In this document: in pieces, positions 162-10,170 of the stretch
Position numbering within the stretch: the first letter of the stretch is position 1
Layout of the letters: every line of letters starts with the position of its first letter
Assembly (NCBI GenBank): GCA_049599475.1
Contig: JBMYOQ010000112.1
Location: 1 to 10,522 of the forward strand
Source of the DNA: Opitutales bacterium
Lineage (GTDB): Bacteria > Verrucomicrobiota > Verrucomicrobiia > Opitutales > JABSRG01
Length of the DNA: 10,522 nucleotides
Reading direction: 5' to 3'
The notes under the pieces: model-generated
What the model saw: the letters and a program-made list of their open reading frames with translations, nothing else
Database searches by the model: none
What the model was told of the DNA's origin: nothing
Made by a program: the position numbers and the translations under genes

Positions 162-965
162 ATGTTAAAATGCGTTAGCCTGTTTCTTTTTCTGGCGGCC
201 TCCTCTTCTATGATCCTCGCGAAGGAAGCCGTAAACCTGCCTGAAGAGACGCTTGAGGAATCTTTTTCTAAACTCACACCGAGGAAGTCGCGAGAGATTG
301 AACACGGAGAAGGTGACAATAAGCGGAAGATTAAATTCCACCGCCTGTCCAAAAAGGATGCGGAGAAGCCTCTGAAAGATCATAAAAAGAAGGAGCAAAA
401 AAAGCTCGATGAACAAGCGGAAGCTGCACGTCAGGAGATTGATACGAAGTATTTCGACGATGCGGGTAATTTCGTTTACCCGAAACGGCATAGCTTGATT
501 TTTGTCTCAGCAAGTGAGCTCGAGAATGGCCAGCACTACCTTGAGTGGACTGATGGCATGACGGGGCAATCTGCTACGGCGCTCAGCAATTTGGATTTTG
601 CTTCATTGAAGCCAACCATAACGATGGAGACAGAGGTGTCCCACGATACGATCCTTCTGTTTCACTTCCCGTATTGGGAAAGTAGTCCAATGAAGAATTG
701 GAGCGATGACGTTTTCGATGAAATGCCTTTGGTCAATTTCAGTGAGACTAGGTCGGAATTCGCAGTCGTTGAAGGCAGTGAAGCTGCCGGAGATATGGAA
801 TCCGTCGTTGCCTTGGATGCCTTACACATCGCTGCAGACGAAACCCCTGAAAAAGTGAAGCGCGATAAGGATGAGAAACCGTCAGTCGTGAAGAAGAAGC
901 CAAAGAAGAAGGAAGATGTGGAAGTCTACTTCTGGCCTATCAAAAGCAAGAAACACCAAGACTAA
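162..965 (+). CDS. Secreted hypothetical protein (Sec signal peptide); putative accessory/adaptor of the Rhs cluster
   Basis: 267-aa ORF with N-terminal MLK + hydrophobic stretch + SMILA/KE, consistent with a signal peptide. It has a charged coiled region (KDHKKKEQKKLDEQAEAARQE), a globular core (LIFVSAS...YLEW...SNLDF...ALDALH) and a Lys-rich linker ending in EDVEVYFWPIKS. It lies 8 bp upstream of the next gene. Confidence 0.85.
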   Translation: MLKCVSLFLFLAASSSMILAKEAVNLPEETLEESFSKLTPRKSREIEHGEGDNKRKIKFHRLSKKDAEKPLKDHKKKEQKKLDEQAEAARQEIDTKYFDDAGNFVYPKRHSLIFVSASELENGQHYLEWTDGMTGQSATALSNLDFASLKPTITMETEVSHDTILLFHFPYWESSPMKNWSDDVFDEMPLVNFSETRSEFAVVEGSEAAGDMESVVALDALHIAADETPEKVKRDKDEKPSVVKKKPKKKEDVEVYFWPIKSKKHQD

Positions 966-973
966 ATATCCTG

Positions 974-3900
974 ATGAAAAGCGCTCGTTGGATAATACTC
1001 TCTCTTTTGTTTGCGGCAGGAATTTGCAAAGCACAGACGGCATCTGATGCAAATCTTGGGCTGCGGATTGAATATGATTCTCTCATTAGCACTGCTGAAG
1101 TCAGTTGGTGGGGCACGACTGGAAAAAGTTATTTCATCCAGGCTACAGACGATCTTCTGGACGGATTTACGTATCTGCCGATTATTGAAAGCGGTTCAGA
1201 TGATGTGATTTCTTGGGGGCTTCTTTCCTCAAGTGATATGGCTTTCTATCGGATTGTATCAGTGGATACCCCCGCTGGTGGTACTGAAGGATACGATTTC
1301 GATTCGGATGATTTGACGACTCTTGAAGAGCTAAATGCAGGTTTAGATCCATTCTCAGCATTGGACCTAGACGGAGACGGTATTCCCGACGACTGGGAAT
1401 CTATTTGGAGTTCGGAAGTCGCAGTATTTCCGAATGCGATCGATTTAGTTCTTAATTGGGGTGAAGTCTCATCTTCGATATTCAAGATAAACAATCCAAC
1501 CGGGGCAGATGCGAATTATTCGATTGTAGTGACTGGGGACGAGATCGCGGGGTATTCATGGGAAGACTCAGAAACAGGCTCTGTATCATATGTCTGGAAT
1601 GATATTAGTGCTAGCGGAACTTTACTCTCCTCCATCGCCAATATTGATAGTGATTCGGAGATGATCACCCTAAGTCAATTTGTCTTTCCGTATTACGGAA
1701 GGGACTACAGTTATGTTTGGGTTTCAACAAACGGATATGTGAACTTTCGACAGGAGTATAACGATGCTACCAATGATCGCCTTCCAAAGACATCCACTCC
1801 ATACGGTGCAATTGCGCCATTCTGGGATGACCTCGATACTGGAGTCGGTGGTGATATATACTACAAGGAGGAATCGAATCGACTCATAGTCCAATATGAA
1901 GCGGTTGCCAAAGATGATGGCAGTGGTCTGAATACATTTCAGATTGTCCTGAATTCAGATGGGAAAATTGAGTTTTACTACAAAGAGATGAACGGAGATC
2001 TCGATGAAAGCACTGTCGGTATCCAAAATGTCTTTCGAAACCAGGGCATTGAGTTACGTTACAATAATCAGAATACGCTCATTTCGATTATTAATGAGTA
2101 CACGATTCATTTTTCTCCGACAAGATCTGCATTCGATATAACTCCGTTGAGTGGAGTGGTCACGAATGCTTCCGTTGAAGATCTCACACTTGAATTCAAT
2201 ACGAACAATCTGCTTCCGGGGTCATATATTGCATCATTTTCCGTTTCTCACGATGGTGCTGGAATATCACCTTGGGTAATTCCTGTAGATTTTGAAATTC
2301 CCTACGCGAAAATGACCGAGCCTTCGGACGGCTATACACTTTGGGAAGGTGAAACACTCTCATCGACTGGAGCTTACCTGCGTGCGAAGGTTATCGATGC
2401 TCCTGATGATATTGATTACGTGGAGTTTCGTTTTGGAGATACTTTAATCGGAACTGACACTGGACCCTCGAATGACGAATATCTGCGGAATTGGAGTAGT
2501 GTGCCGCCAGGAGAGCACCAAGTGTTTGCACGTGTTGTTCTCGACGACGGCTCGACCAATGATTCCAAACCCGTCCTGATTAATGTCCTTCCTGATAGTG
2601 ATAGCGATAGAATGGATGACCGTTGGGAAGAGGAGTATTTTGGTGGTATCCAAGAAGATCCGTTAGATGATTTCGATAATGACGGTGCTTCCAACCTGCA
2701 CGAATACGAAGCCGGAACCAATCCAGATGACGATACGGATACTCCGCCAAACATTCCTTCAACGGTAGTAATAACCGATCCTGCGGATGGTCTAACTGTG
2801 TTTGATGGCGACCAAGTCCACTTCAGAGCGACAGTCGCTGATACCGACTTCGGCGTAGAATATGTTAACTTTCTCTTGGACGGGAGTGTGATCGCTAGTG
2901 ACACCAACCTTAACACGATTGCGTCTGATTATGAAAATATCACACCTCCGGGGACTTACACCCTAATCGCGCGTGCTGTTGACAGGTATGGAGCGGAGTC
3001 TGATTCAGCTCCGATTACTGTAACAATCTACCCCGATGCAGATGGCGATCGCATGCCCGACGATTGGGAGACGAATAACCTTACTGACTTGTCAAATGAC
3101 GCCTCTGGCGATGCAGACTTCGATGGTTTTCCGAATATCTTCGAGTTCCATTTCGGAACGGACCCCGATGACGCGGCATCCAAGCCAGTGTATTCGCAAA
3201 CTCAAAATACGGTAAGCCCCGAGTCTGAGATTGGCGAAGTTAACTACTTCAAAGTCTACCCTGGAGCTCCTAATTCAGACTTTGAATGGGATACAATCCA
3301 AGGCGCTTTGAGCAGAGCAGATAATGTTGGTGAAGGTTTTGATATTATAGAGGTCGCTCAAGGAGTTTATAACGAGGACATTCGCATTGATGATCGTGTA
3401 TATCTGTTCGCTCCTGATGGACCTCGCTTGACCATTATCGATGGAACGGATCGCAATGACAGTGTCGTCGACTTAAATTCGGAGAGTGTTATCCATGGCT
3501 TTACTATCCAAAATGGAGGCACTACCGAGACCGTAAGCTATGGCGGAGGTATTAATGTTTCGGCGTATCAAGATGCGAACAAACCGAGACTAGTGGGTTG
3601 TGTTCTCTCCAACAACATAGCTAACCTTCAGGGAGGCGGTATTTACGTAGGGAATGGTGAGTTGACCTTGGTTTCCTGCACTGTTGTTAAAAATGATTCT
3701 GCACAAGGGCGTGCCGCATATGTGAATCCTGGTAGCAATCGAGGTCTTGTGTTGGTTAATTCGCTACTGTGGAATCCGGGGAATACTGGTTTCGAAATCG
3801 AAGGAAACCCTGCGAATGTTTCGCTCAATTCTTCGATCACGCGTGATGACAGTTCAGGAAACGTATTAATTGATGACATAGATCAAGGAACGGACAAGGT

Positions 3901-4534
3901 AGGCCTAACGCCTTGGTTCGGTATTTATGACACGTCTCCCGCCTATAATGCAGGTAGCTCAACTGAATATACAAAATGGGACATGGACCTCGAAGAGCGA
4001 ACCGATGGCCAGATCGATATTGGTGCCGATGAGGCGGTCGATGCAGATACAGACGGTATGGCGGACACATGGGAAGATTGGTATTCCGTATCAGATCCTG
4101 CGGCACATTCAGATGGTGATGACCTAACAAATCTTGAGGAGTATCAAAACCAAACCGACCCTACTAAATCGGATACTGACGGGGATGGTCTGTTGGATCA
4201 TGATGAAATTATTCTAGGCACTGATCCAACGGTGCCGGATGCTTTTGATTTGGACCAAGATCTTAATCAAGATGGCCTCGATGATTCAGTGGGAGTTGTT
4301 CTGGGCTACTCGCCTGCTGATACCGACGTTGACGGGGATGGTGTGTTGAATGCCGATGAGATTGCCCAAGGAACCAGTCCGTTTTTGCAAGATACCGACG
4401 GTGACGGTGTCAATGACGACGTAGACGCGTTCCCTACAGATCCTCTCCTTACGACTTTGGGAAGTAATGACCCTTCTGATACTACAGCACCCTTGATAAC
4501 GCTCGGTAAACCGCCCGAGGCTGTTCTTCTTTAG
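974..4534 (+). CDS. Large secreted Ca-binding multidomain adhesin-like protein (bacterial TSP3-like DxDxDG repeats, nidogen-like domain, Ig-like domains, right-handed beta-helix)
   Basis: 1186-aa ORF with signal peptide MKSARWIILSLLFAAGICKA. Many DxDxDGxxDxWE / DxDxDGxxNxxE...GTDP motifs. Nidogen-like motifs FPYYG...STNGY...IAPFWDDL...FQIVL..DG.I.F.Y. Two Ig-like domains (..T.P.DG...V.F..D...PG...L.A.A.D). Beta-helix motifs TIQGAL...VAQGVY.E.I...TIIDG...GFTIQNG...GGGI...DIGADE. Confidence 0.9.
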   Translation: MKSARWIILSLLFAAGICKAQTASDANLGLRIEYDSLISTAEVSWWGTTGKSYFIQATDDLLDGFTYLPIIESGSDDVISWGLLSSSDMAFYRIVSVDTPAGGTEGYDFDSDDLTTLEELNAGLDPFSALDLDGDGIPDDWESIWSSEVAVFPNAIDLVLNWGEVSSSIFKINNPTGADANYSIVVTGDEIAGYSWEDSETGSVSYVWNDISASGTLLSSIANIDSDSEMITLSQFVFPYYGRDYSYVWVSTNGYVNFRQEYNDATNDRLPKTSTPYGAIAPFWDDLDTGVGGDIYYKEESNRLIVQYEAVAKDDGSGLNTFQIVLNSDGKIEFYYKEMNGDLDESTVGIQNVFRNQGIELRYNNQNTLISIINEYTIHFSPTRSAFDITPLSGVVTNASVEDLTLEFNTNNLLPGSYIASFSVSHDGAGISPWVIPVDFEIPYAKMTEPSDGYTLWEGETLSSTGAYLRAKVIDAPDDIDYVEFRFGDTLIGTDTGPSNDEYLRNWSSVPPGEHQVFARVVLDDGSTNDSKPVLINVLPDSDSDRMDDRWEEEYFGGIQEDPLDDFDNDGASNLHEYEAGTNPDDDTDTPPNIPSTVVITDPADGLTVFDGDQVHFRATVADTDFGVEYVNFLLDGSVIASDTNLNTIASDYENITPPGTYTLIARAVDRYGAESDSAPITVTIYPDADGDRMPDDWETNNLTDLSNDASGDADFDGFPNIFEFHFGTDPDDAASKPVYSQTQNTVSPESEIGEVNYFKVYPGAPNSDFEWDTIQGALSRADNVGEGFDIIEVAQGVYNEDIRIDDRVYLFAPDGPRLTIIDGTDRNDSVVDLNSESVIHGFTIQNGGTTETVSYGGGINVSAYQDANKPRLVGCVLSNNIANLQGGGIYVGNGELTLVSCTVVKNDSAQGRAAYVNPGSNRGLVLVNSLLWNPGNTGFEIEGNPANVSLNSSITRDDSSGNVLIDDIDQGTDKVGLTPWFGIYDTSPAYNAGSSTEYTKWDMDLEERTDGQIDIGADEAVDADTDGMADTWEDWYSVSDPAAHSDGDDLTNLEEYQNQTDPTKSDTDGDGLLDHDEIILGTDPTVPDAFDLDQDLNQDGLDDSVGVVLGYSPADTDVDGDGVLNADEIAQGTSPFLQDTDGDGVNDDVDAFPTDPLLTTLGSNDPSDTTAPLITLGKPPEAVLL
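1550..2119 (+). other. Nidogen (NIDO)-like domain within the 974-4534 protein
   Basis: aa ~193-382: GYSWEDS...YVWNDI...FVFPYYGRDYSYVWVSTNGYVNF...LP....P.GAIAPFWDDLD...GDIYY...LIVQY...TFQIVLNSDGKIEFYY...STVGIQN. Recognised by motif only. Confidence 0.7.
2300..3172 (+). repeat. Protein-level tandem duplication of an [Ig-like domain + TSP3-like Ca-binding repeat] module (2 copies, ~147 aa period)
   Basis: Copy 1 (~2300-2740): TEPSDG...YVEF..GD..I..DT...PPG...PVLINVL-PDSDSDRMDDRWE...DFDNDGASNLHEYEAGTNPDD. Copy 2 (~2750-3172): TDPADG...YVNF.LDG..I..DT...PPG...PITVTIY-PDADGDRMPDDWE...DADFDGFPNIFEFHFGTDPDD. The PDxDxDRM motifs start at 2591 and 3032, 441 nt apart. Confidence 0.8.
3293..4033 (+). 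other. Pectin-lyase-like right-handed beta-helix domain with a DIGADE-type cap, within the 974-4534 protein
   Basis: aa ~774-1020: TIQGALSRA...DIIEVAQGVYNEDI...GPRLTIIDG...IHGFTIQNG...YGGGI...NNIANLQGGGIY...TVVKNDS...NSLLWN...SPAYNAG...DIGADE. Confidence 0.75.
4040..4444 (+). repeat. C-terminal cluster of bacterial TSP3-like DxDxDG calcium-binding repeats
   Basis: DADTDGMADTWE, SDGDDLTNLEE, DTDGDGLLDHDE..LGTDP, DLNQDGLDD, DVDGDGVLNADE..QGTSP, DTDGDGVNDDVDAFPTDP. Confidence 0.85.
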
Positions 4535-4555
4535 ACCTTTTAGATTCTCTCTTCT

Positions 4556-7500
4556 ATGAAATTATATTCTTCACTCTCCGTCGCTTTAGCCGCAGGCGCA
4601 CTTTCGGCGCTATCTGGGCAGCTCACAGCCAAAGAGGAAACAAAAAAGTTCGTACCGGCCGATGCTTTTAAAGAGGTCTGGGTGCCGCCAGCTCCGGTAA
4701 AAACGAAAGACATCACTCAGCCTAAAAGAGGTGCCCGCGCCCAGAAACCAGATGTGACTTTGAAGCTGGAACGTACGCCGAGTATGAAAAGCTTAGAGTC
4801 CGCGCGATTGTTGAGAAAGCCGCTAAGAGCTACAAAGGAAGTTCCCTCTGAAAAAGAACGCAGAGAAGTTGCTAAGTTGCTCAAGCGCTTGGATGCGGAT
4901 GGGGGGCATTTCAATACTGCGAACTGTGCTAAAATCGAAAAATTTGTCTCAGATAATCCAGACTCGCCTTTCAATGTAAGCTTACTCCTTGAGAAATCTC
5001 GCATCGAATGGACTCACGGCTATTTCACTCTAGCACTGGATTCCCTCCGAGATGCTTGGGCAATCGAAAGCGCAGATCTTACTGATGAAGCCGCGCGTCT
5101 CAGAGATATCGCGTTCGCTGAATTGGCCGAAAAATTAGGAAACTTGGGTCAACGCGAAGAATTAAGAAGTCTCATTGCTGAGGCGAAAGAGCGCACTCTG
5201 GGCGGCACCGCTGCCGAAGCCTTGATTAAAGCCGAAGAGGTTCTCTGGTTCTTTGATAATCAGGCAGAGCAAAATGTATTCTGTGGATTTACCGCAACAA
5301 ATGCAGTTTGTGTCCCTCTTGGGCATAAACCTATTTTCCCGGATGTTCATGATGAGCAAGAAGAGCGTGAATTTATCGAGAATGGCCTTTCGCTCTACGA
5401 GTTGCGTGCGCATAGCCATGAGGCGGGAGGCGATATTGAACTTTACAAGAGGGGCAATTCAAAGGGGATTCCTGTTCCTTCAGTTATTCATTGGAACTTT
5501 AACCATTACTCCGCAATTACTGAACAAGATGGTGATCTCTATCGCGTCAAAGACTTTCACTTAAAGGTGGATACTTGGGTAACACTCGATGCCCTTGAGC
5601 TTCAAATGAGTGGTTATTTTGCCATGTCTGCTTCTGTGTCAGTTCCCGCAGGGTTTGAGCCCGTAGACGATGCCGAAGCGAAGACTATTTTCGGGCGACA
5701 CTGCACCCACGGTCGAGGTGATGAAGGAAGTGACAACGGAGGGGGAGGCAATGAGGACGATTGCGCGATGGCTACCTACAGTTTCCGCTTCCTCAATCCG
5801 GGTCTTGAATTACACGACACCCCCATCTCTTATTCGCCACCTTATGGCCCATCGATTAATTTCAAACTAAATTACGATCAGCGGAGCACGAGTATCCCAG
5901 ACATTCAGGACTTCGGTAATTTTGGACCACGATGGACACACAATTATTTGAGCTATGTAGATATCGTGGGATCAGGAACGCCAGCGTCTAGTGTCGAGGT
6001 CGTTTTTGGTGACGGCACCTACTTTAGTTACAGTTATAATACTTCAGCAGGAACCTACACCACCGCTTACGGAGATCGTCCGCGTCTTGACTACATCGCT
6101 GCGGGTGCCGGTGGCCCTGCTTATCAGATGACTTACAATGACGGTTCCATAAAAATATTCGGTCAGGGGGATTCTGGTTCACCCACGCGCTTTTTCCTTA
6201 CCGAAATATCCGACCCGCAGGATAACTCTGTTACCCTTCAGTATGACGCTAACCTTCGGATTACTTCAATTTTTGATGCGCTTGGTCAGGAAACGACACT
6301 CTCTTACACTCCTGACGCAGGGGCAAATGTAGCGAGTGATACAGACAAAATTAGATCTATCACCGATCCGTTTAACCGCACTGCTTTGTTCAAATATACG
6401 GCTTCTGGTCAACTCTTTCAGATTATCGACCCAGAGGGTATTGTTTCCGAATTTAGCTACGATAATGGAGATTTTATCGATGCTTTCACAACGCCTTATG
6501 GAACATGGACGATTGATTTTGGAACTGTTCCAAATACGACCAATAATGTTAACGGCCTCTATATCGAGGTAACAGATCCATATGGGGATAAAGAACGTGT
6601 CGAGCAATTCGACGCGAGCCTTAGCCAATACAACCCTTCTGGGACAGAAACCCTTGCGCCAAGCTCGGTTGATGTTGACGGATCAAGCGTTTCTTTTATG
6701 CCCAAAAATTCGGACCTTGGTTGGAGAAACACCTTTCATTGGGACAAGCAACAGATGCAATATCATGCGGGTGACTATTCAAAGGCCACGGTTCACAATT
6801 GGCTGGCTGAAAACAATACAATCGTCGGAGTTAAAGCTAGTATCAAAAGGCCGGAAGAGGGCCGAGTCTGGTTCAATTACCCTGGACAAACCAGCTCGCA
6901 TGCTCCGGGCACATTCGATAGCCCTTCCAAAATTGTGCGTGCCGTTGAGGATGAAACTGGGACTCAAACATGGTCTATGTCTCAGAATGAGTATGACGCT
7001 AACTATGGAAAGCTTTCCAAGACCATTGATCCACTCGGGCGCGAAGTCGTTTACGAATATAATCCTTTAGGGACAGTGCCTGGTGCGATTACCGGTATCG
7101 ATCTCACGGCAATGAAAGTCAAAAATGCTTCCGGTAGTTACGAGACCATTACCTCATACTCAGATTACGTCGGAGGCTTACCACAGACGATCACTGAAGC
7201 ATCAGGTCTCGTCACGTCCTACCTCTACAATACTGAGGGGCAGACCACCCAAATAACTCTCAGTAAGGGCGGGAATTCTGAAGTAACAAAATTCATTTAT
7301 GATGAAGATCTCGATGGCACGCCTGATGCCAGAGGTTACTTAATTGAAGTGCAGACTACCGATCCCGAAAACCCAAGTGGATTCGTAACAGTCTCTCGAT
7401 ACACTTACGACGGCTTCGGACGCGTGCGCACGGAGACAAATGTTGATGGCTACACGCTGACCTTCGATTACGATAATTTTGATCGTGTCACGCTCATTTC

Positions 7501-9970
7501 GCATCCAGACACCACTACCGAACAGTTCGTCTACAAAGATCTAGATTTGGAGGCTGTAAAAGACCGCAACGGTAATTGGACGCGCTACGGGTATGATGCG
7601 AATCGCCAGCTTGTTTTTCAGCAAGACCCTGAGGGAAATATTACTGCAACGGAGTGGTGTCGCTGTGGAGATATTCGCAAGGTTATAGACCCTAAGAAGA
7701 ATGTCACCCAATGGAAGCGCGATGCCCAAGGGCGTCCATACGAAAAAATTTATCCAGATGGCACTAAAACCACTTACACCTACCAAGCACACAGTGGAAA
7801 TTTAGAAACGATCACGTATGCGAACGATCAAGCGAGCGGTCAGCCAACGGTCACATACAAATATTACATCGATGGCACCTTAGCATCTGCTGATTACACT
7901 GATCCTGATACTCCCGATGTTTCATACGCATACAATGATCCTCTGGCGCGCCTCACCAGTCACACCGACCAGCTCGGCACGACTGCTTACAGCTACGTGC
8001 CGTTCAACGGGAATCAAGCTGGAGCCGGAGCGCCTTATGAAACAAATGGTCCATGGGCCGATGATAATATTCGGTTCTCTTACGATTGGCGCAATCGCCT
8101 GAACAAACGCGAAATCTTAGACGATGTGGTGGCTGTCCCTGGCGTCCTCCACAGCGTCGAATGGCAGTTTGATTCACTGGGCCGTGTAATGAACGAAGTC
8201 AACGACCTTGGAACGTTCACCAACGTCTACAACTCAGGCAACCTTTCTGCGAGAGCCGACGCGGTGCAGTATCCGTCTTCTACAGGAATTACCGCGTCCT
8301 ACGATTATTACGCGATCACCGGATCCGCTAATGATAATCGATTAAAGGAAATTCACTATACCGGAAACGGAGGCTCTACACTGAGCAAATACAGCTATGA
8401 GTTCGATCCCGCTGGACGCATCAAAAAATGGACTCAGCAGCAAGGCGCAACGACTGCCGCTATCAAACATCACACTTTCGACTACGATAAAGCATCTCAG
8501 CTCACTGAAGCCGTTATTACGAATAACGGAGGCACAACTTTGGATTCATGGTCTTGGCAATACGATCCTGCCGGAAATCGTCAGCGAGAAAGTGAGGGCT
8601 CTGGCTCTGATTATTCGCAATACAACAACCTGAATCAACTCTCCCAAATCGGAGGCGACGGCACCACCCTGATTGAGGGTACTATCGACGAACTAGCCCT
8701 CGTAAATGTCAACGGAAGCTCTGCTGAAGTGACGAGTCTTGCAGGAGGTGGTTTCCGCTTCCGCAAAGAAGTTCCAGTCACTGAAGGCAGCAATACCGTG
8801 ACGGTCGAAGCCACCGATGCTTCAGGAAACACCGCGAGCCAAAGCTATGCAATCACGGTCGGTGGTGTTCAGAAGGTTTTGGAATACGATTTAAACGGAA
8901 ACCTTCGCTACGAAAAGGACAGCTTTGGAAGTGTATTACGAGAGTTCCAATGGGATGCTAAGAACCGCCTTATTGCAATTATTGATGGTGCCCAGATAAG
9001 CGAATTCGAATACGACGGCTTGGATCGTAGAGTTCGAATAATCGAAACAGAAAATTCGGTCGAAGTGTCAAATGATGTGTTTATTTGGATCGGTGGCCGA
9101 ATCGTCCAGAAAAGAAATGCTACGGCGACAGCGTTAGTCCGCAATTTTTACAACAGAGGTTTCAGTGAAGGAAGTAGTGATTACTTCCTAACAAAAGACC
9201 ACCTCGGAAGTATTCGTGAAGTTGTTGCCGCTAATGGAGCGACGGTCGAATCGCGCTATGAATACAACTCATGGGGTGAATTCACGAAGACCGCCGGAAT
9301 AGGTGCTGAAAGCGACTTCCTCTATACCGGACATTTGTATCATACTGAAAGCGAACTTTTCCTTGCTCAATATCGTGCTTATAATTCGGAAAACGGTCGT
9401 TGGCTTAACCGAGATCCTGCTGGGTTCATTGATGGCCCTAACCTTTACCGATATGGCCTGAATGATCCAATCGGGAAATTCGACAACAATGGACTATGGG
9501 TGAATTTTGCTATTGGAGCCGGGATCGGATTGGGTTTTGAGGCTGCGGCTCAGATCATTAGTGGAGAGTTTAATCCTCGAGCATTGGTCGTTTCGACTTT
9601 GACCGGAGCATTAACCGGAGGAGTTGGGGCTGGAATAGCGAAAGGAATTGTTGGTAACGGTCTGCGTCAAATCGCCGGAAGAGGGGCATTGAATGCGGGA
9701 GTTGGTGCAGGTGCCGGCGCACTCGGTGCCGCGGCAAACTGCGACGATATCGTTGATGGTGCGGTATCGGGATTGGTTTCTGGAGCAGCTGGCTCTGTGC
9801 TTGGAGACCTTGGCGGTTCGGCGGCGCGTAATGCTCTGACCGATCGCTATGCGACTGTTGCTGGTGGTGCGGGTGAGACTGTGACTGATGCTCTTGGGGA
9901 TGCAGGAGAGATTGTAACAGGGACAATAATCTCAGGTGTTACATCTGGTGTATCTACTTTTGTACCATGA
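4556..9970 (+). CDS. RHS/YD-repeat polymorphic toxin with signal peptide, TPR-like region, peptidase C39-like domain, inserted Ig-like domain, RHS-associated core and glycine-rich C-terminal payload
   Basis: 1804-aa ORF with signal peptide MKLYSSLSVALAAGALSALSGQLTA and numerous YD repeats (YDGFGRV, YDNFDRV, YDANRQL, YDPAGNR, YDLNGNL, YDGLDRR). Core: DHLGSIR...YEYNSWGE...YTGH...YRAYNSENGRWLNRDPAG..DGPNLYRYGLNDPIGKFDNNGL. Confidence 0.95.
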   Translation: MKLYSSLSVALAAGALSALSGQLTAKEETKKFVPADAFKEVWVPPAPVKTKDITQPKRGARAQKPDVTLKLERTPSMKSLESARLLRKPLRATKEVPSEKERREVAKLLKRLDADGGHFNTANCAKIEKFVSDNPDSPFNVSLLLEKSRIEWTHGYFTLALDSLRDAWAIESADLTDEAARLRDIAFAELAEKLGNLGQREELRSLIAEAKERTLGGTAAEALIKAEEVLWFFDNQAEQNVFCGFTATNAVCVPLGHKPIFPDVHDEQEEREFIENGLSLYELRAHSHEAGGDIELYKRGNSKGIPVPSVIHWNFNHYSAITEQDGDLYRVKDFHLKVDTWVTLDALELQMSGYFAMSASVSVPAGFEPVDDAEAKTIFGRHCTHGRGDEGSDNGGGGNEDDCAMATYSFRFLNPGLELHDTPISYSPPYGPSINFKLNYDQRSTSIPDIQDFGNFGPRWTHNYLSYVDIVGSGTPASSVEVVFGDGTYFSYSYNTSAGTYTTAYGDRPRLDYIAAGAGGPAYQMTYNDGSIKIFGQGDSGSPTRFFLTEISDPQDNSVTLQYDANLRITSIFDALGQETTLSYTPDAGANVASDTDKIRSITDPFNRTALFKYTASGQLFQIIDPEGIVSEFSYDNGDFIDAFTTPYGTWTIDFGTVPNTTNNVNGLYIEVTDPYGDKERVEQFDASLSQYNPSGTETLAPSSVDVDGSSVSFMPKNSDLGWRNTFHWDKQQMQYHAGDYSKATVHNWLAENNTIVGVKASIKRPEEGRVWFNYPGQTSSHAPGTFDSPSKIVRAVEDETGTQTWSMSQNEYDANYGKLSKTIDPLGREVVYEYNPLGTVPGAITGIDLTAMKVKNASGSYETITSYSDYVGGLPQTITEASGLVTSYLYNTEGQTTQITLSKGGNSEVTKFIYDEDLDGTPDARGYLIEVQTTDPENPSGFVTVSRYTYDGFGRVRTETNVDGYTLTFDYDNFDRVTLISHPDTTTEQFVYKDLDLEAVKDRNGNWTRYGYDANRQLVFQQDPEGNITATEWCRCGDIRKVIDPKKNVTQWKRDAQGRPYEKIYPDGTKTTYTYQAHSGNLETITYANDQASGQPTVTYKYYIDGTLASADYTDPDTPDVSYAYNDPLARLTSHTDQLGTTAYSYVPFNGNQAGAGAPYETNGPWADDNIRFSYDWRNRLNKREILDDVVAVPGVLHSVEWQFDSLGRVMNEVNDLGTFTNVYNSGNLSARADAVQYPSSTGITASYDYYAITGSANDNRLKEIHYTGNGGSTLSKYSYEFDPAGRIKKWTQQQGATTAAIKHHTFDYDKASQLTEAVITNNGGTTLDSWSWQYDPAGNRQRESEGSGSDYSQYNNLNQLSQIGGDGTTLIEGTIDELALVNVNGSSAEVTSLAGGGFRFRKEVPVTEGSNTVTVEATDASGNTASQSYAITVGGVQKVLEYDLNGNLRYEKDSFGSVLREFQWDAKNRLIAIIDGAQISEFEYDGLDRRVRIIETENSVEVSNDVFIWIGGRIVQKRNATATALVRNFYNRGFSEGSSDYFLTKDHLGSIREVVAANGATVESRYEYNSWGEFTKTAGIGAESDFLYTGHLYHTESELFLAQYRAYNSENGRWLNRDPAGFIDGPNLYRYGLNDPIGKFDNNGLWVNFAIGAGIGLGFEAAAQIISGEFNPRALVVSTLTGALTGGVGAGIAKGIVGNGLRQIAGRGALNAGVGAGAGALGAAANCDDIVDGAVSGLVSGAAGSVLGDLGGSAARNALTDRYATVAGGAGETVTDALGDAGEIVTGTIISGVTSGVSTFVP
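5270..5630 (+). other. Peptidase C39-like domain in the Rhs protein, with candidate triad C243/H317/D333
   Basis: FCG (Cys codon 5282-5284), GLSLYEL, and IPVPSVIHWNFNHYSAI (His 5504-5506)...YRVKD (Asp 5552-5554). The P.I.HW...HY...D pattern and the 16-residue His-Asp spacing match C39 peptidase domains of PCAT/ComA-type transporters. Confidence 0.75.
8651..8860 (+). other. Ig-like beta-sandwich domain inserted within a YD repeat
   Basis: aa 1366-1435 GGDGTTLIEGTIDELALVNVNG...FRKEVPVTEGSNTVTVEATDASGNTASQSYAITV, placed between YNNLNQLSQI and LEYDLNGNL. G.NT.TV.ATD..GN is a typical bacterial Ig-like motif. Confidence 0.8.
9197..9496 (+). other. RHS repeat-associated core with aspartyl autoprotease residues; predicted cleavage after L1647
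   Basis: RD (D1620, 9413-9415) and D1643 (9482-9484) are 23 residues apart and are followed by xxGL, as in the catalytic dyad of Tc-C/Rhs cores. The motif reads PIGKFDNNGL instead of PxxxxDPxGL. Confidence 0.85.
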
Positions 9971-10170
9971 AAACCATAAAACTATCCATTTTGCTCTCAG
10001 GTCTCACTTCGTTTGGGATATTTGTAGTGGGCATGTTTAAAGTATTTATTCTTGGCCAAGAGATACCTGTTGAAAGAATTTTTTCTGCAACAGCTTTCTC
10101 ATTGGTCTTCATGTTCGTAATATTTCTTTCCATCTTTGGTTATCTGATGAGGCGAAAGTCTAAGTTGTAG
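9967..10170 (+). CDS. Small two-TM membrane protein; putative cognate immunity protein
   Basis: 67 aa. ATGA overlap with the rhs stop codon (9967-9970). Two hydrophobic segments (aa ~6-29 and ~38-60) and a basic tail RRKSKL. AT-rich (20/60 G+C at 10021-10080). Sits in the canonical immunity position. Confidence 0.75.
   Translation: MKTIKLSILLSGLTSFGIFVVGMFKVFILGQEIPVERIFSATAFSLVFMFVIFLSIFGYLMRRKSKL

Follow-up and report, generated by a model that had tools for sequence, protein, structure and literature searches.

How do Rhs toxins that are exported by the Sec pathway, without parts of a type VI secretion system (T6SS), a Tc toxin or a contact-dependent inhibition (CDI) system, find and enter their targets? 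The question bears on a locus of an Opitutales bacterium (Verrucomicrobiota; assembly GCA_049599475.1, contig JBMYOQ010000112.1), of which we analysed a stretch of 10,522 nucleotides (the window). The open reading frames (ORFs) and translations give a single operon on the + strand, coding for a small secreted protein, an adhesin-like protein, an Rhs toxin and a small ORF. The window holds an operon for a secreted polymorphic toxin of several components, in a verrucomicrobial genome. The adhesin-like protein ends in an 18-residue tail resembling the first segment of an immunoglobulin (Ig)-like domain, and the Rhs protein carries an Ig-like insert from which that segment is missing. The existence of the two complementary halves is established, as are their conservation, their co-occurrence and selection on them at the protein level. 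A split Ig domain that is completed in trans, the tail docking on the Rhs insert, is in our judgement the best explanation, and we give it about an even chance. The four features concerned are these:

974..4534, + strand: 1186-residue secreted adhesin-like protein with signal peptide, NIDO domain, Big_7 Ig domain, beta-helix-like region, TSP3 repeats and tail (Pfam, NCBIfam).
4478..4531, + strand: C-terminal tail of the adhesin, DTTAPLITLGKPPEAVLL, by sequence the counterpart of strands A-A' in an Ig domain of Glucodextran_B type (sequence comparison).
4556..9970, + strand: 1804-residue Rhs/YD-repeat polymorphic toxin with signal peptide (RHS_repeat E 7.1e-39; PDB Rhs chains by sequence and fold).
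8651..8866, + strand: Ig-like insert of the Rhs protein (residues 1366-1437), in a hairpin of the YD shell, of Glucodextran_B/Big_13 type and with six strands (Pfam, AlphaFold2, match to 1UG9).

Is the insert really an Ig domain with a part missing? Residues 1366-1435 match the Pfam family Glucodextran_B (PF09136) at E 1.3e-08 and 35.1 bits, the cut-off being 27, and the match covers profile positions 18-81 of 83 only. A match to Big_13 (PF19077) at 27.2 bits (cut-off 27) likewise takes in only part of the profile, positions 38-100 of 102. Three other insert-bearing Rhs proteins begin at Glucodextran_B positions 19, 20 and 21. What is absent is thus the first ~17 profile positions, that is, the A/A' segment; the initial annotation of this DNA was right that the insert has no first strand, and by the profile it is not a complete domain. 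A complete Glucodextran_B domain, as in protein P0228, spans positions 1-82, and the one in P0215 likewise starts at position 1. The best structural match of the insert is domain B of glucodextranase 1UG9 (Z 8.5, root-mean-square deviation 2.0, 65 residues aligned, 34% identity), and it is limited to chain residues 706-774. AlphaFold2 models the insert as six strands, with confidence (pLDDT) of 83-92 within a 475-residue shell fragment and of 91-98 in the core when the insert is modelled alone.

The other half stands at the very end of the adhesin. Codons 4478-4531 encode DTTAPLITLGKPPEAVLL and are followed by the stop codon TAG at 4532-4534, so that the protein does stop directly after the strand-like segment, as first noted. 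The adhesin's own Big_7 Ig domain (residues 597-664) opens with PSTVVITDPADGLTV. A closer link to the insert's family comes from P0228, whose complete domain opens with DNIAPAIHIDSPANALEL and continues TASEVDVVGRV; the latter stretch corresponds to TTLIEGTIDE of the insert, and the first 18 residues of the domain agree with the tail at 7 of 18 positions. When a tail hidden Markov model (HMM) was run over all analysed proteins, the best clearly internal match was P0228 residues 328-345 (E 0.032); one better match, in L076, sits 8 residues from the C-terminus of its protein. Since the profile positions, the P0228 segment, the tail HMM and the 1UG9 match all point the same way, the two halves are, as far as sequence comparison goes, real and of one Ig family.

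Among 120 listed relatives of adhesin residues 900-1186 (protein P0001), 39 carry the motif at their end, a count made by reading the C-termini by eye. The terminal motif is D-x-x-x-P-x-(I/V)-x-L-x-x-P-x-x-A, 15-19 residues from the C-terminus, and in an alignment of 38 of the 39 tail-bearing relatives D28, P32 and P39 are invariant. The N-terminal parts of these relatives vary (NIDO, pectinesterase-like beta-helix, RCC1). All of them end 15-26 residues past the conserved D and none runs on into a domain, which disposes of the concern that homologous adhesins might continue into a full Ig domain. Fused or longer forms were looked for and none was found, although the five longer matches available are weak evidence on this point; the only tail carrier among the five, P0385, stops 26 residues after the D. 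By the names of their sources the homologues come from Luteolibacter, Coraliomargarita and Akkermansiaceae records and from at least one Myxococcota record.

Is such a tail maintained for a function, or is it an inert remnant of a lost Ig domain or of a gene fission, with the insert complete and nothing bound to it? Like motifs do open Ig domains inside adhesins, namely the Big_7 domain just mentioned and three internal Ig starts in P0039, and AlphaFold2 needs no partner to fold the insert. The genome itself provides a test in a paralogous operon on contig C63, whose adhesin ends in SDTSAPLITLEQPPHAVAL-stop and whose Rhs protein has the same insert and a different toxin end. The two tails are identical at 13 of 18 residues (72%), against 521 of 1186 (44%) for the whole adhesins, and 12 of the 13 conserved tail residues are encoded by different codons. 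Differing codons at conserved residues indicate that selection acts on the peptide and not on the DNA, and on this comparison the tail is under protein-level selection. Together with the three residues that are invariant across 38 diverged tails and the retention of the tail on unrelated passenger architectures, this makes an inert remnant improbable. Two other accounts of the tail were rejected: truncation by a recent mutation, which is ruled out by the paralogue and the relatives that end alike, and conservation of the DNA as a regulatory overlap, which is ruled out by the codon turnover at 12 of 13 residues.

Does the tail go with the insert? Genome scans were made within one phylum (401 genomes). 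A tail profile gave eight full or nearly full matches, of which all seven that can be evaluated lie directly upstream of an insert-bearing Rhs gene; the eighth is at a contig end. With the insert region as query, 38 of the genomes proved to have Rhs genes. The Rhs sample took in 36 further stretches and two more Rhs loci from the genome to which the window belongs (G000); 41 Rhs ORFs of at least 1200 residues were tabulated and 38 are evaluable, L097 and L106 (upstream sequence lacking) and L107 (Rhs frame cut before the insert position) being left out. A tail was called strict if P-x-[IVLF]-x-[IVLF]-x-x-P occurs within the last 22 residues of the upstream same-strand protein, and insert-less loci were checked with a wider upstream-ORF rule. 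A short strand-like tail was found upstream of 30 of the 31 insert-bearing Rhs ORFs and of none of the seven insert-less ones, and the expected co-occurrence of tail and insert across loci was thereby borne out.

The 30 tails are not all of one kind. Strict tails account for 17 of the 31 insert-bearing ORFs, from 14 genomes, and a variant of the strict tail for three more (L084, L085, L086). The other ten (L095, L096, L098, L100-L105, L109) have a second short tail type or its variant, a type that was defined after being seen. Second-type tails (..GNIGLKVHTP, ..FVVFTPL, ..FRVFTPLR, ..LKIYHPVQRQP) are found on TSP3-type proteins and pair with a second insert sequence type (..NQYTQRT.PG..).

A C-terminal motif on varied passengers might also be an export, sorting or surface-anchoring signal that is read by host machinery, the Rhs protein being merely co-cargo of the operon. 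The strictly C-terminal position recalls known C-terminal sorting domains, and all three large window proteins (the 267-residue product of the first gene, the adhesin and the Rhs protein) have Sec signal peptides. Against this, the tail has neither the transmembrane helix nor the basic end of known C-terminal sorting signals, it lies only beside Rhs genes in the seven evaluable profile matches, it is absent from the ends of all 150 generic TSP3-repeat proteins taken as a negative control, and its type switches with the type of insert. We accordingly rate a sorting signal as very unlikely.

Which part of the Rhs protein does the tail follow? Strict tails occur with two Rhs N-terminal types, C39/TPR and CBM48/DUF6531, so that what they follow is the insert or the shell and not C39. 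Where the Rhs is of C39/TPR type, its gene abuts or overlaps the tail gene; in the window the Rhs ATG is at 4556, 21 bases past the adhesin stop. In the CBM48/DUF6531 type (L079, L082, L083, L088, L091) an ORF of ~150-190 residues, of no known family, lies between the two genes, and the tail reads P-E-I-x-I-x-(W/Y)-P-x-(D/E)-G-x-x-L. A further case is L078, a C39-type Rhs with 48.6% identity to the window Rhs up to the insertion point. It is without exactly the insert (and one YD repeat), and there is no tail gene upstream.

The two other Rhs loci of the window genome, on contigs C32 (L112) and C4 (L113), are both insert-less. Their gene order is a TSP3-rich protein of 1552-1564 residues, a protein of ~300 residues and an Rhs of 2060 or 2755 residues (stop-to-stop frames). 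The TSP3-rich proteins end in a globular ..CHR.Y.(Y/F)QD.. domain and have no tail, in what looks like a different coupling solution. Another arrangement is seen in L111 (1784-8138, - strand), where TSP3 repeats, beta-helix parts and DUF6531 are fused in cis to an Rhs that has no insert. The start of this Rhs shares 199 bases with a 440-residue TSP3/Chlam_PMP ORF; the cause may be a frameshift, or the two frames may genuinely overlap. One operon of genome G116 has two Rhs genes: the first bears an insert and is followed directly by one without an insert (L042 3-6821, - strand; 2273 residues, its frame open where the locus ends).

Prediction of the complex was one of the checks proposed in the initial annotation, a confident interface being the result hoped for. 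The input was Rhs residues 1332-1472 (13 aligned rows) and the last 45 adhesin residues (38 rows). The pair scored 0.43 (runs 0.42, 0.44 and 0.43), and the best of three controls scored 0.00; at least 85% of contacts are common to the runs, and partner pLDDT is at least 55. In calibration 116 of 157 solved complexes passed the mark, as did 2 of 215 mismatched pairs, counts that hold only roughly here since our own alignments were used; only 18 of the 157 solved complexes, and both passing mismatches, passed with scores of 0.60 or under. The outcome is of the class 'weak support', and the prediction gave no interface.

The missing interface could mean that the tail links the upstream protein to the toxin system and yet docks off the insert, which would then be a self-sufficient surface domain. 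It could sit at an edge of the YD shell, on the N-terminal region (TPR/C39 or CBM48), on the first-gene product or on the ~150-residue protein of the CBM48 clade. TPR repeats often bind C-terminal peptides, and such repeats precede the C39 domain in L092 and L099; the extra small conserved genes in the operons, and the confident folding of the insert alone, would also suit docking at another place. Strict tails, however, accompany Rhs proteins that have no TPR/C39 region (the CBM48 clade), and L078 has a C39 domain yet neither insert nor tail gene. Between the conserved D and the C-terminus lie from 15 to 26 residues, a spread that argues against recognition of a free carboxylate, and the tail matches the very segment, in the insert's Ig family, that the insert is missing. 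On balance docking elsewhere is unlikely.

Completion of the insert by the tail has its own difficulties, which weigh against it as follows. In the first place, AlphaFold2 folds the insert confidently as six strands without any partner; the initial annotation had treated a self-sufficient insert as a refutation, and the finding is divided, with the A/A' segment absent but the remainder folding well alone. The loss of strand A may be purely topological, a consequence of insertion into a hairpin: an Ig domain so placed must drop strand A for its two ends to meet, and 'incomplete' need not then imply a partner. All Rhs inserts examined share one start point, whichever tail is upstream, and the insert is identical between the paralogues at 39 of 72 residues, no higher than the shell right after it (118 of 210). 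The ten second-type tails are shorter and unlike the A-A' segment, and the insert-bearing Rhs of L087 has no tail protein upstream. Pfam gave no match up to E 10 for tail pieces of 30 and 45 residues, although such a piece is very short. As for the counts, the loci are related, and shared inheritance of tail, insert and operon could explain the co-occurrence; the query used to collect the Rhs set contained the insert, hence the few insert-less cases (7); and the insert HMM was built from the counted loci themselves. Finally, the complex prediction yielded no contacts, and a result of the weak class is 'more often wrong than right unless the guess was likely beforehand'. The original idea that the tail completes the Rhs Ig domain therefore gains from co-occurrence and family fit and gains little from the prediction.

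That said, the tail may well bind the insert, and a site, a geometry and a role in targeting can be proposed. Both proteins would be exported by Sec. The adhesin would consist of variable N-terminal binding domains, a stalk of TSP3-type calcium-binding repeats (residues ~1022-1151; the NIDO domain is at residues 248-307) and the 18-residue tail. The tail would lie along the presumed free B and G edges of the insert, strand A pairing with B and A' with G, and would thereby complete the Ig sandwich and join the binding module non-covalently to the toxin capsule. Its end would be located where strand B leaves the shell, with the TSP3 stalk departing from the distal tip; a tail ending at that point would explain the constant C-terminal position of the motif.

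The remaining features of the operon are as follows:

162..965, + strand: first gene of the operon, 267-residue secreted protein of no known family, ending ..VYFWPIKSKKHQD (ORF, translation).
5333..5614, + strand: diverged peptidase-C39-like domain of the Rhs protein, residues ~260-353, with the histidine motif HW..NHY..AI (BLASTP to L043).
9263..9496, + strand: Rhs-associated core, residues 1570-1647, ending ..DPIGKFDNNGL, the usual self-cleavage region (TIGR03696 E 7.5e-16).
9497..9967, + strand: variable C-terminal toxin region, residues 1648-1804, rich in glycine and alanine (sequence).
9967..10170, + strand: 67-residue ORF with two hydrophobic helices, candidate immunity protein (its start overlaps the Rhs stop, ATGA).

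The product of the first gene has no Pfam or NCBIfam match. Similar C-terminal ends are found at the head of three other loci (L044 8364-9335, L084 8370-9179, L089 11306-12601), and this protein may be a third component of the system or an alternative partner of the tail. An aromatic end motif is common to the first genes of the four loci (..VYFWPI.., ..INFWRV.., ..IYFWKI.., ..INFWKV..).

Membership of the Rhs/YD family is clear from RHS_repeat in Pfam and YD_repeat_2x in NCBIfam (E 7.2e-27). The AlphaFold2 model of residues 1173-1647 matches solved Rhs shells, for example 7Q97 at E 4.2e-19; 7Q97 is also among the closest solved relatives by sequence (E 6.4e-25), and 4O9X, 4IGL and 6H6E are among the other structural matches. 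In none of the solved Rhs chains matched by sequence or fold is there an Ig insert. A search with the whole Rhs protein in 40 relatives (genus, family, order) found two genomes besides that of the window that reach E 1e-20 or better. Behind the core, the C-terminal 157 residues share only 21 of 157 with the paralogue, against 671 of 1804 overall, as expected of a variable toxin. This region has no Pfam or NCBIfam family match; judged by composition it is probably membrane-acting. The 67-residue ORF likewise has no match in either database, and the two-helix protein is a candidate immunity protein for the glycine-rich toxin end.

The C39-like domain aligns in BLASTP, at E 2e-07, with its counterpart in the L043 Rhs, which itself matches Peptidase_C39 (PF03412) in Pfam at E 6.4e-15; the Pfam scan of the window Rhs gave no match in its own copy. 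PF03412 was found at E 0.01 or better in 7 of 27 Rhs N-termini scanned (L078 falling below the cut-off) and in 4 of 7 proteins of another scanned set (L040 falling below the cut-off). A glycine run, ..SDNGGGGNEDD.., lies between this domain and the shell (5700-5780, + strand; Rhs residues ~385-410), and the paralogue Rhs carries ..GNGGEEE.. at the same position. C39 peptidases cut after Gly-Gly, and the Rhs N-terminal region might be released by self-cleavage at the glycine run.

What would follow if the tail does bind the insert? Targeting by such toxins would then be achieved by a separate binding module that is clipped to the capsule through a domain split over two genes. A conserved operon type (small protein, tail-bearing TSP3 protein, insert-bearing Rhs, immunity gene) would also be defined, which could be annotated in Verrucomicrobiota and, by homologue source names, in at least one Myxococcota record. 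It is possible, though doubtful, that the split Ig is a general plug-and-socket for secreted Rhs toxins, with an Ig domain that lacks strand A, set in a fixed hairpin of the capsule, as the socket, and short C-terminal strands as the plugs, on TSP3-stalk proteins that have their own genes and freely varying binding domains. With the same reserve, plugs and sockets would come in two or more matched types, one insert going with tails of the form P-x-I-x-I-x-x-P and a second with ..L-x-V-F-T-P-L tails. In that case a change of gene would allow bacteria in several phyla to swap binding modules while keeping the capsule, a natural counterpart to engineered split-domain couplers; an Ig domain that is split in nature and paired with a peptide of 18 residues would also be of interest to protein engineers. 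Should binding fail, a well-defined conserved C-terminal motif remains.

How does this compare with known systems? The initial annotation drew its analogy from chaperone-usher pili (PapD/FimC), in which a strand of another polypeptide fills out, in trans, an Ig fold that is incomplete. The analogy is a loose one. In chaperone-usher pilins the C-terminal G strand is absent and an N-terminal extension serves as the donor, whereas the insert is without the N-terminal A/A' segment and the candidate donor is C-terminal; those systems also have a chaperone and an usher, and neither family is present among the five window ORFs scanned (Pfam, NCBIfam). The Tc (ABC) toxins are alike in having an Rhs/YD capsule, related in its fold, that holds a toxin, and a separate large binding component to which it is attached non-covalently; the likeness goes no further than this union of capsule and binding part. 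Tc toxins couple through the TcB beta-propeller and the TcA funnel. They differ in that the matched solved cocoons have no Ig insert, and no TcA-, SpvB- or propeller-type family was found by Pfam and NCBIfam in the window ORFs. The T6SS-linked Rhs effectors (RhsA 7Q97, RhsP 8H8A, Tse15, Tre23) share the self-cleaving core motifs and the polymorphic C-terminal toxins. T6SS Rhs effectors load onto VgrG/PAAR with Eag chaperones; unlike them, the window Rhs starts with a Sec signal peptide and contains a C39-like domain as well as the Ig insert. No solved Rhs chain aligns across the insert as an Ig domain. In the open-access papers and bioRxiv preprints searched, an Ig insert in Rhs shells, the tail, and strand donation to an Rhs protein are undescribed.

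Two further systems are relevant. Bacterial teneurin-like proteins (TLPs) are secreted YD-shell toxins with N-terminal modules of 'diverse adhesion domains' (PMC13018210). The adhesion domains of TLPs are fused in cis to the shell, whereas here they are on a separate protein that ends in the tail; the cis-fused, insert-less form is present in this phylum too, in L111. The coupling would have its closest analogue in the type V pili of Bacteroidia (FimA, Mfa1), where C-terminal donor strands fill the site of the N-terminal strand in another beta-sandwich, non-covalently and without a chaperone (PMC13655056). A C-terminal donor that replaces an N-terminal strand fits the sequence logic of tail and insert better than the chaperone-usher scheme does. 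In type V pili the acceptor's own N-terminal anchor strand is released by gingipain and the product is a homopolymer (PMC13655056). Here, in contrast, the acceptor never encodes the strand, there is no pilin fold, and the product would be a putative 1:1 hetero-complex of adhesin and capsule.

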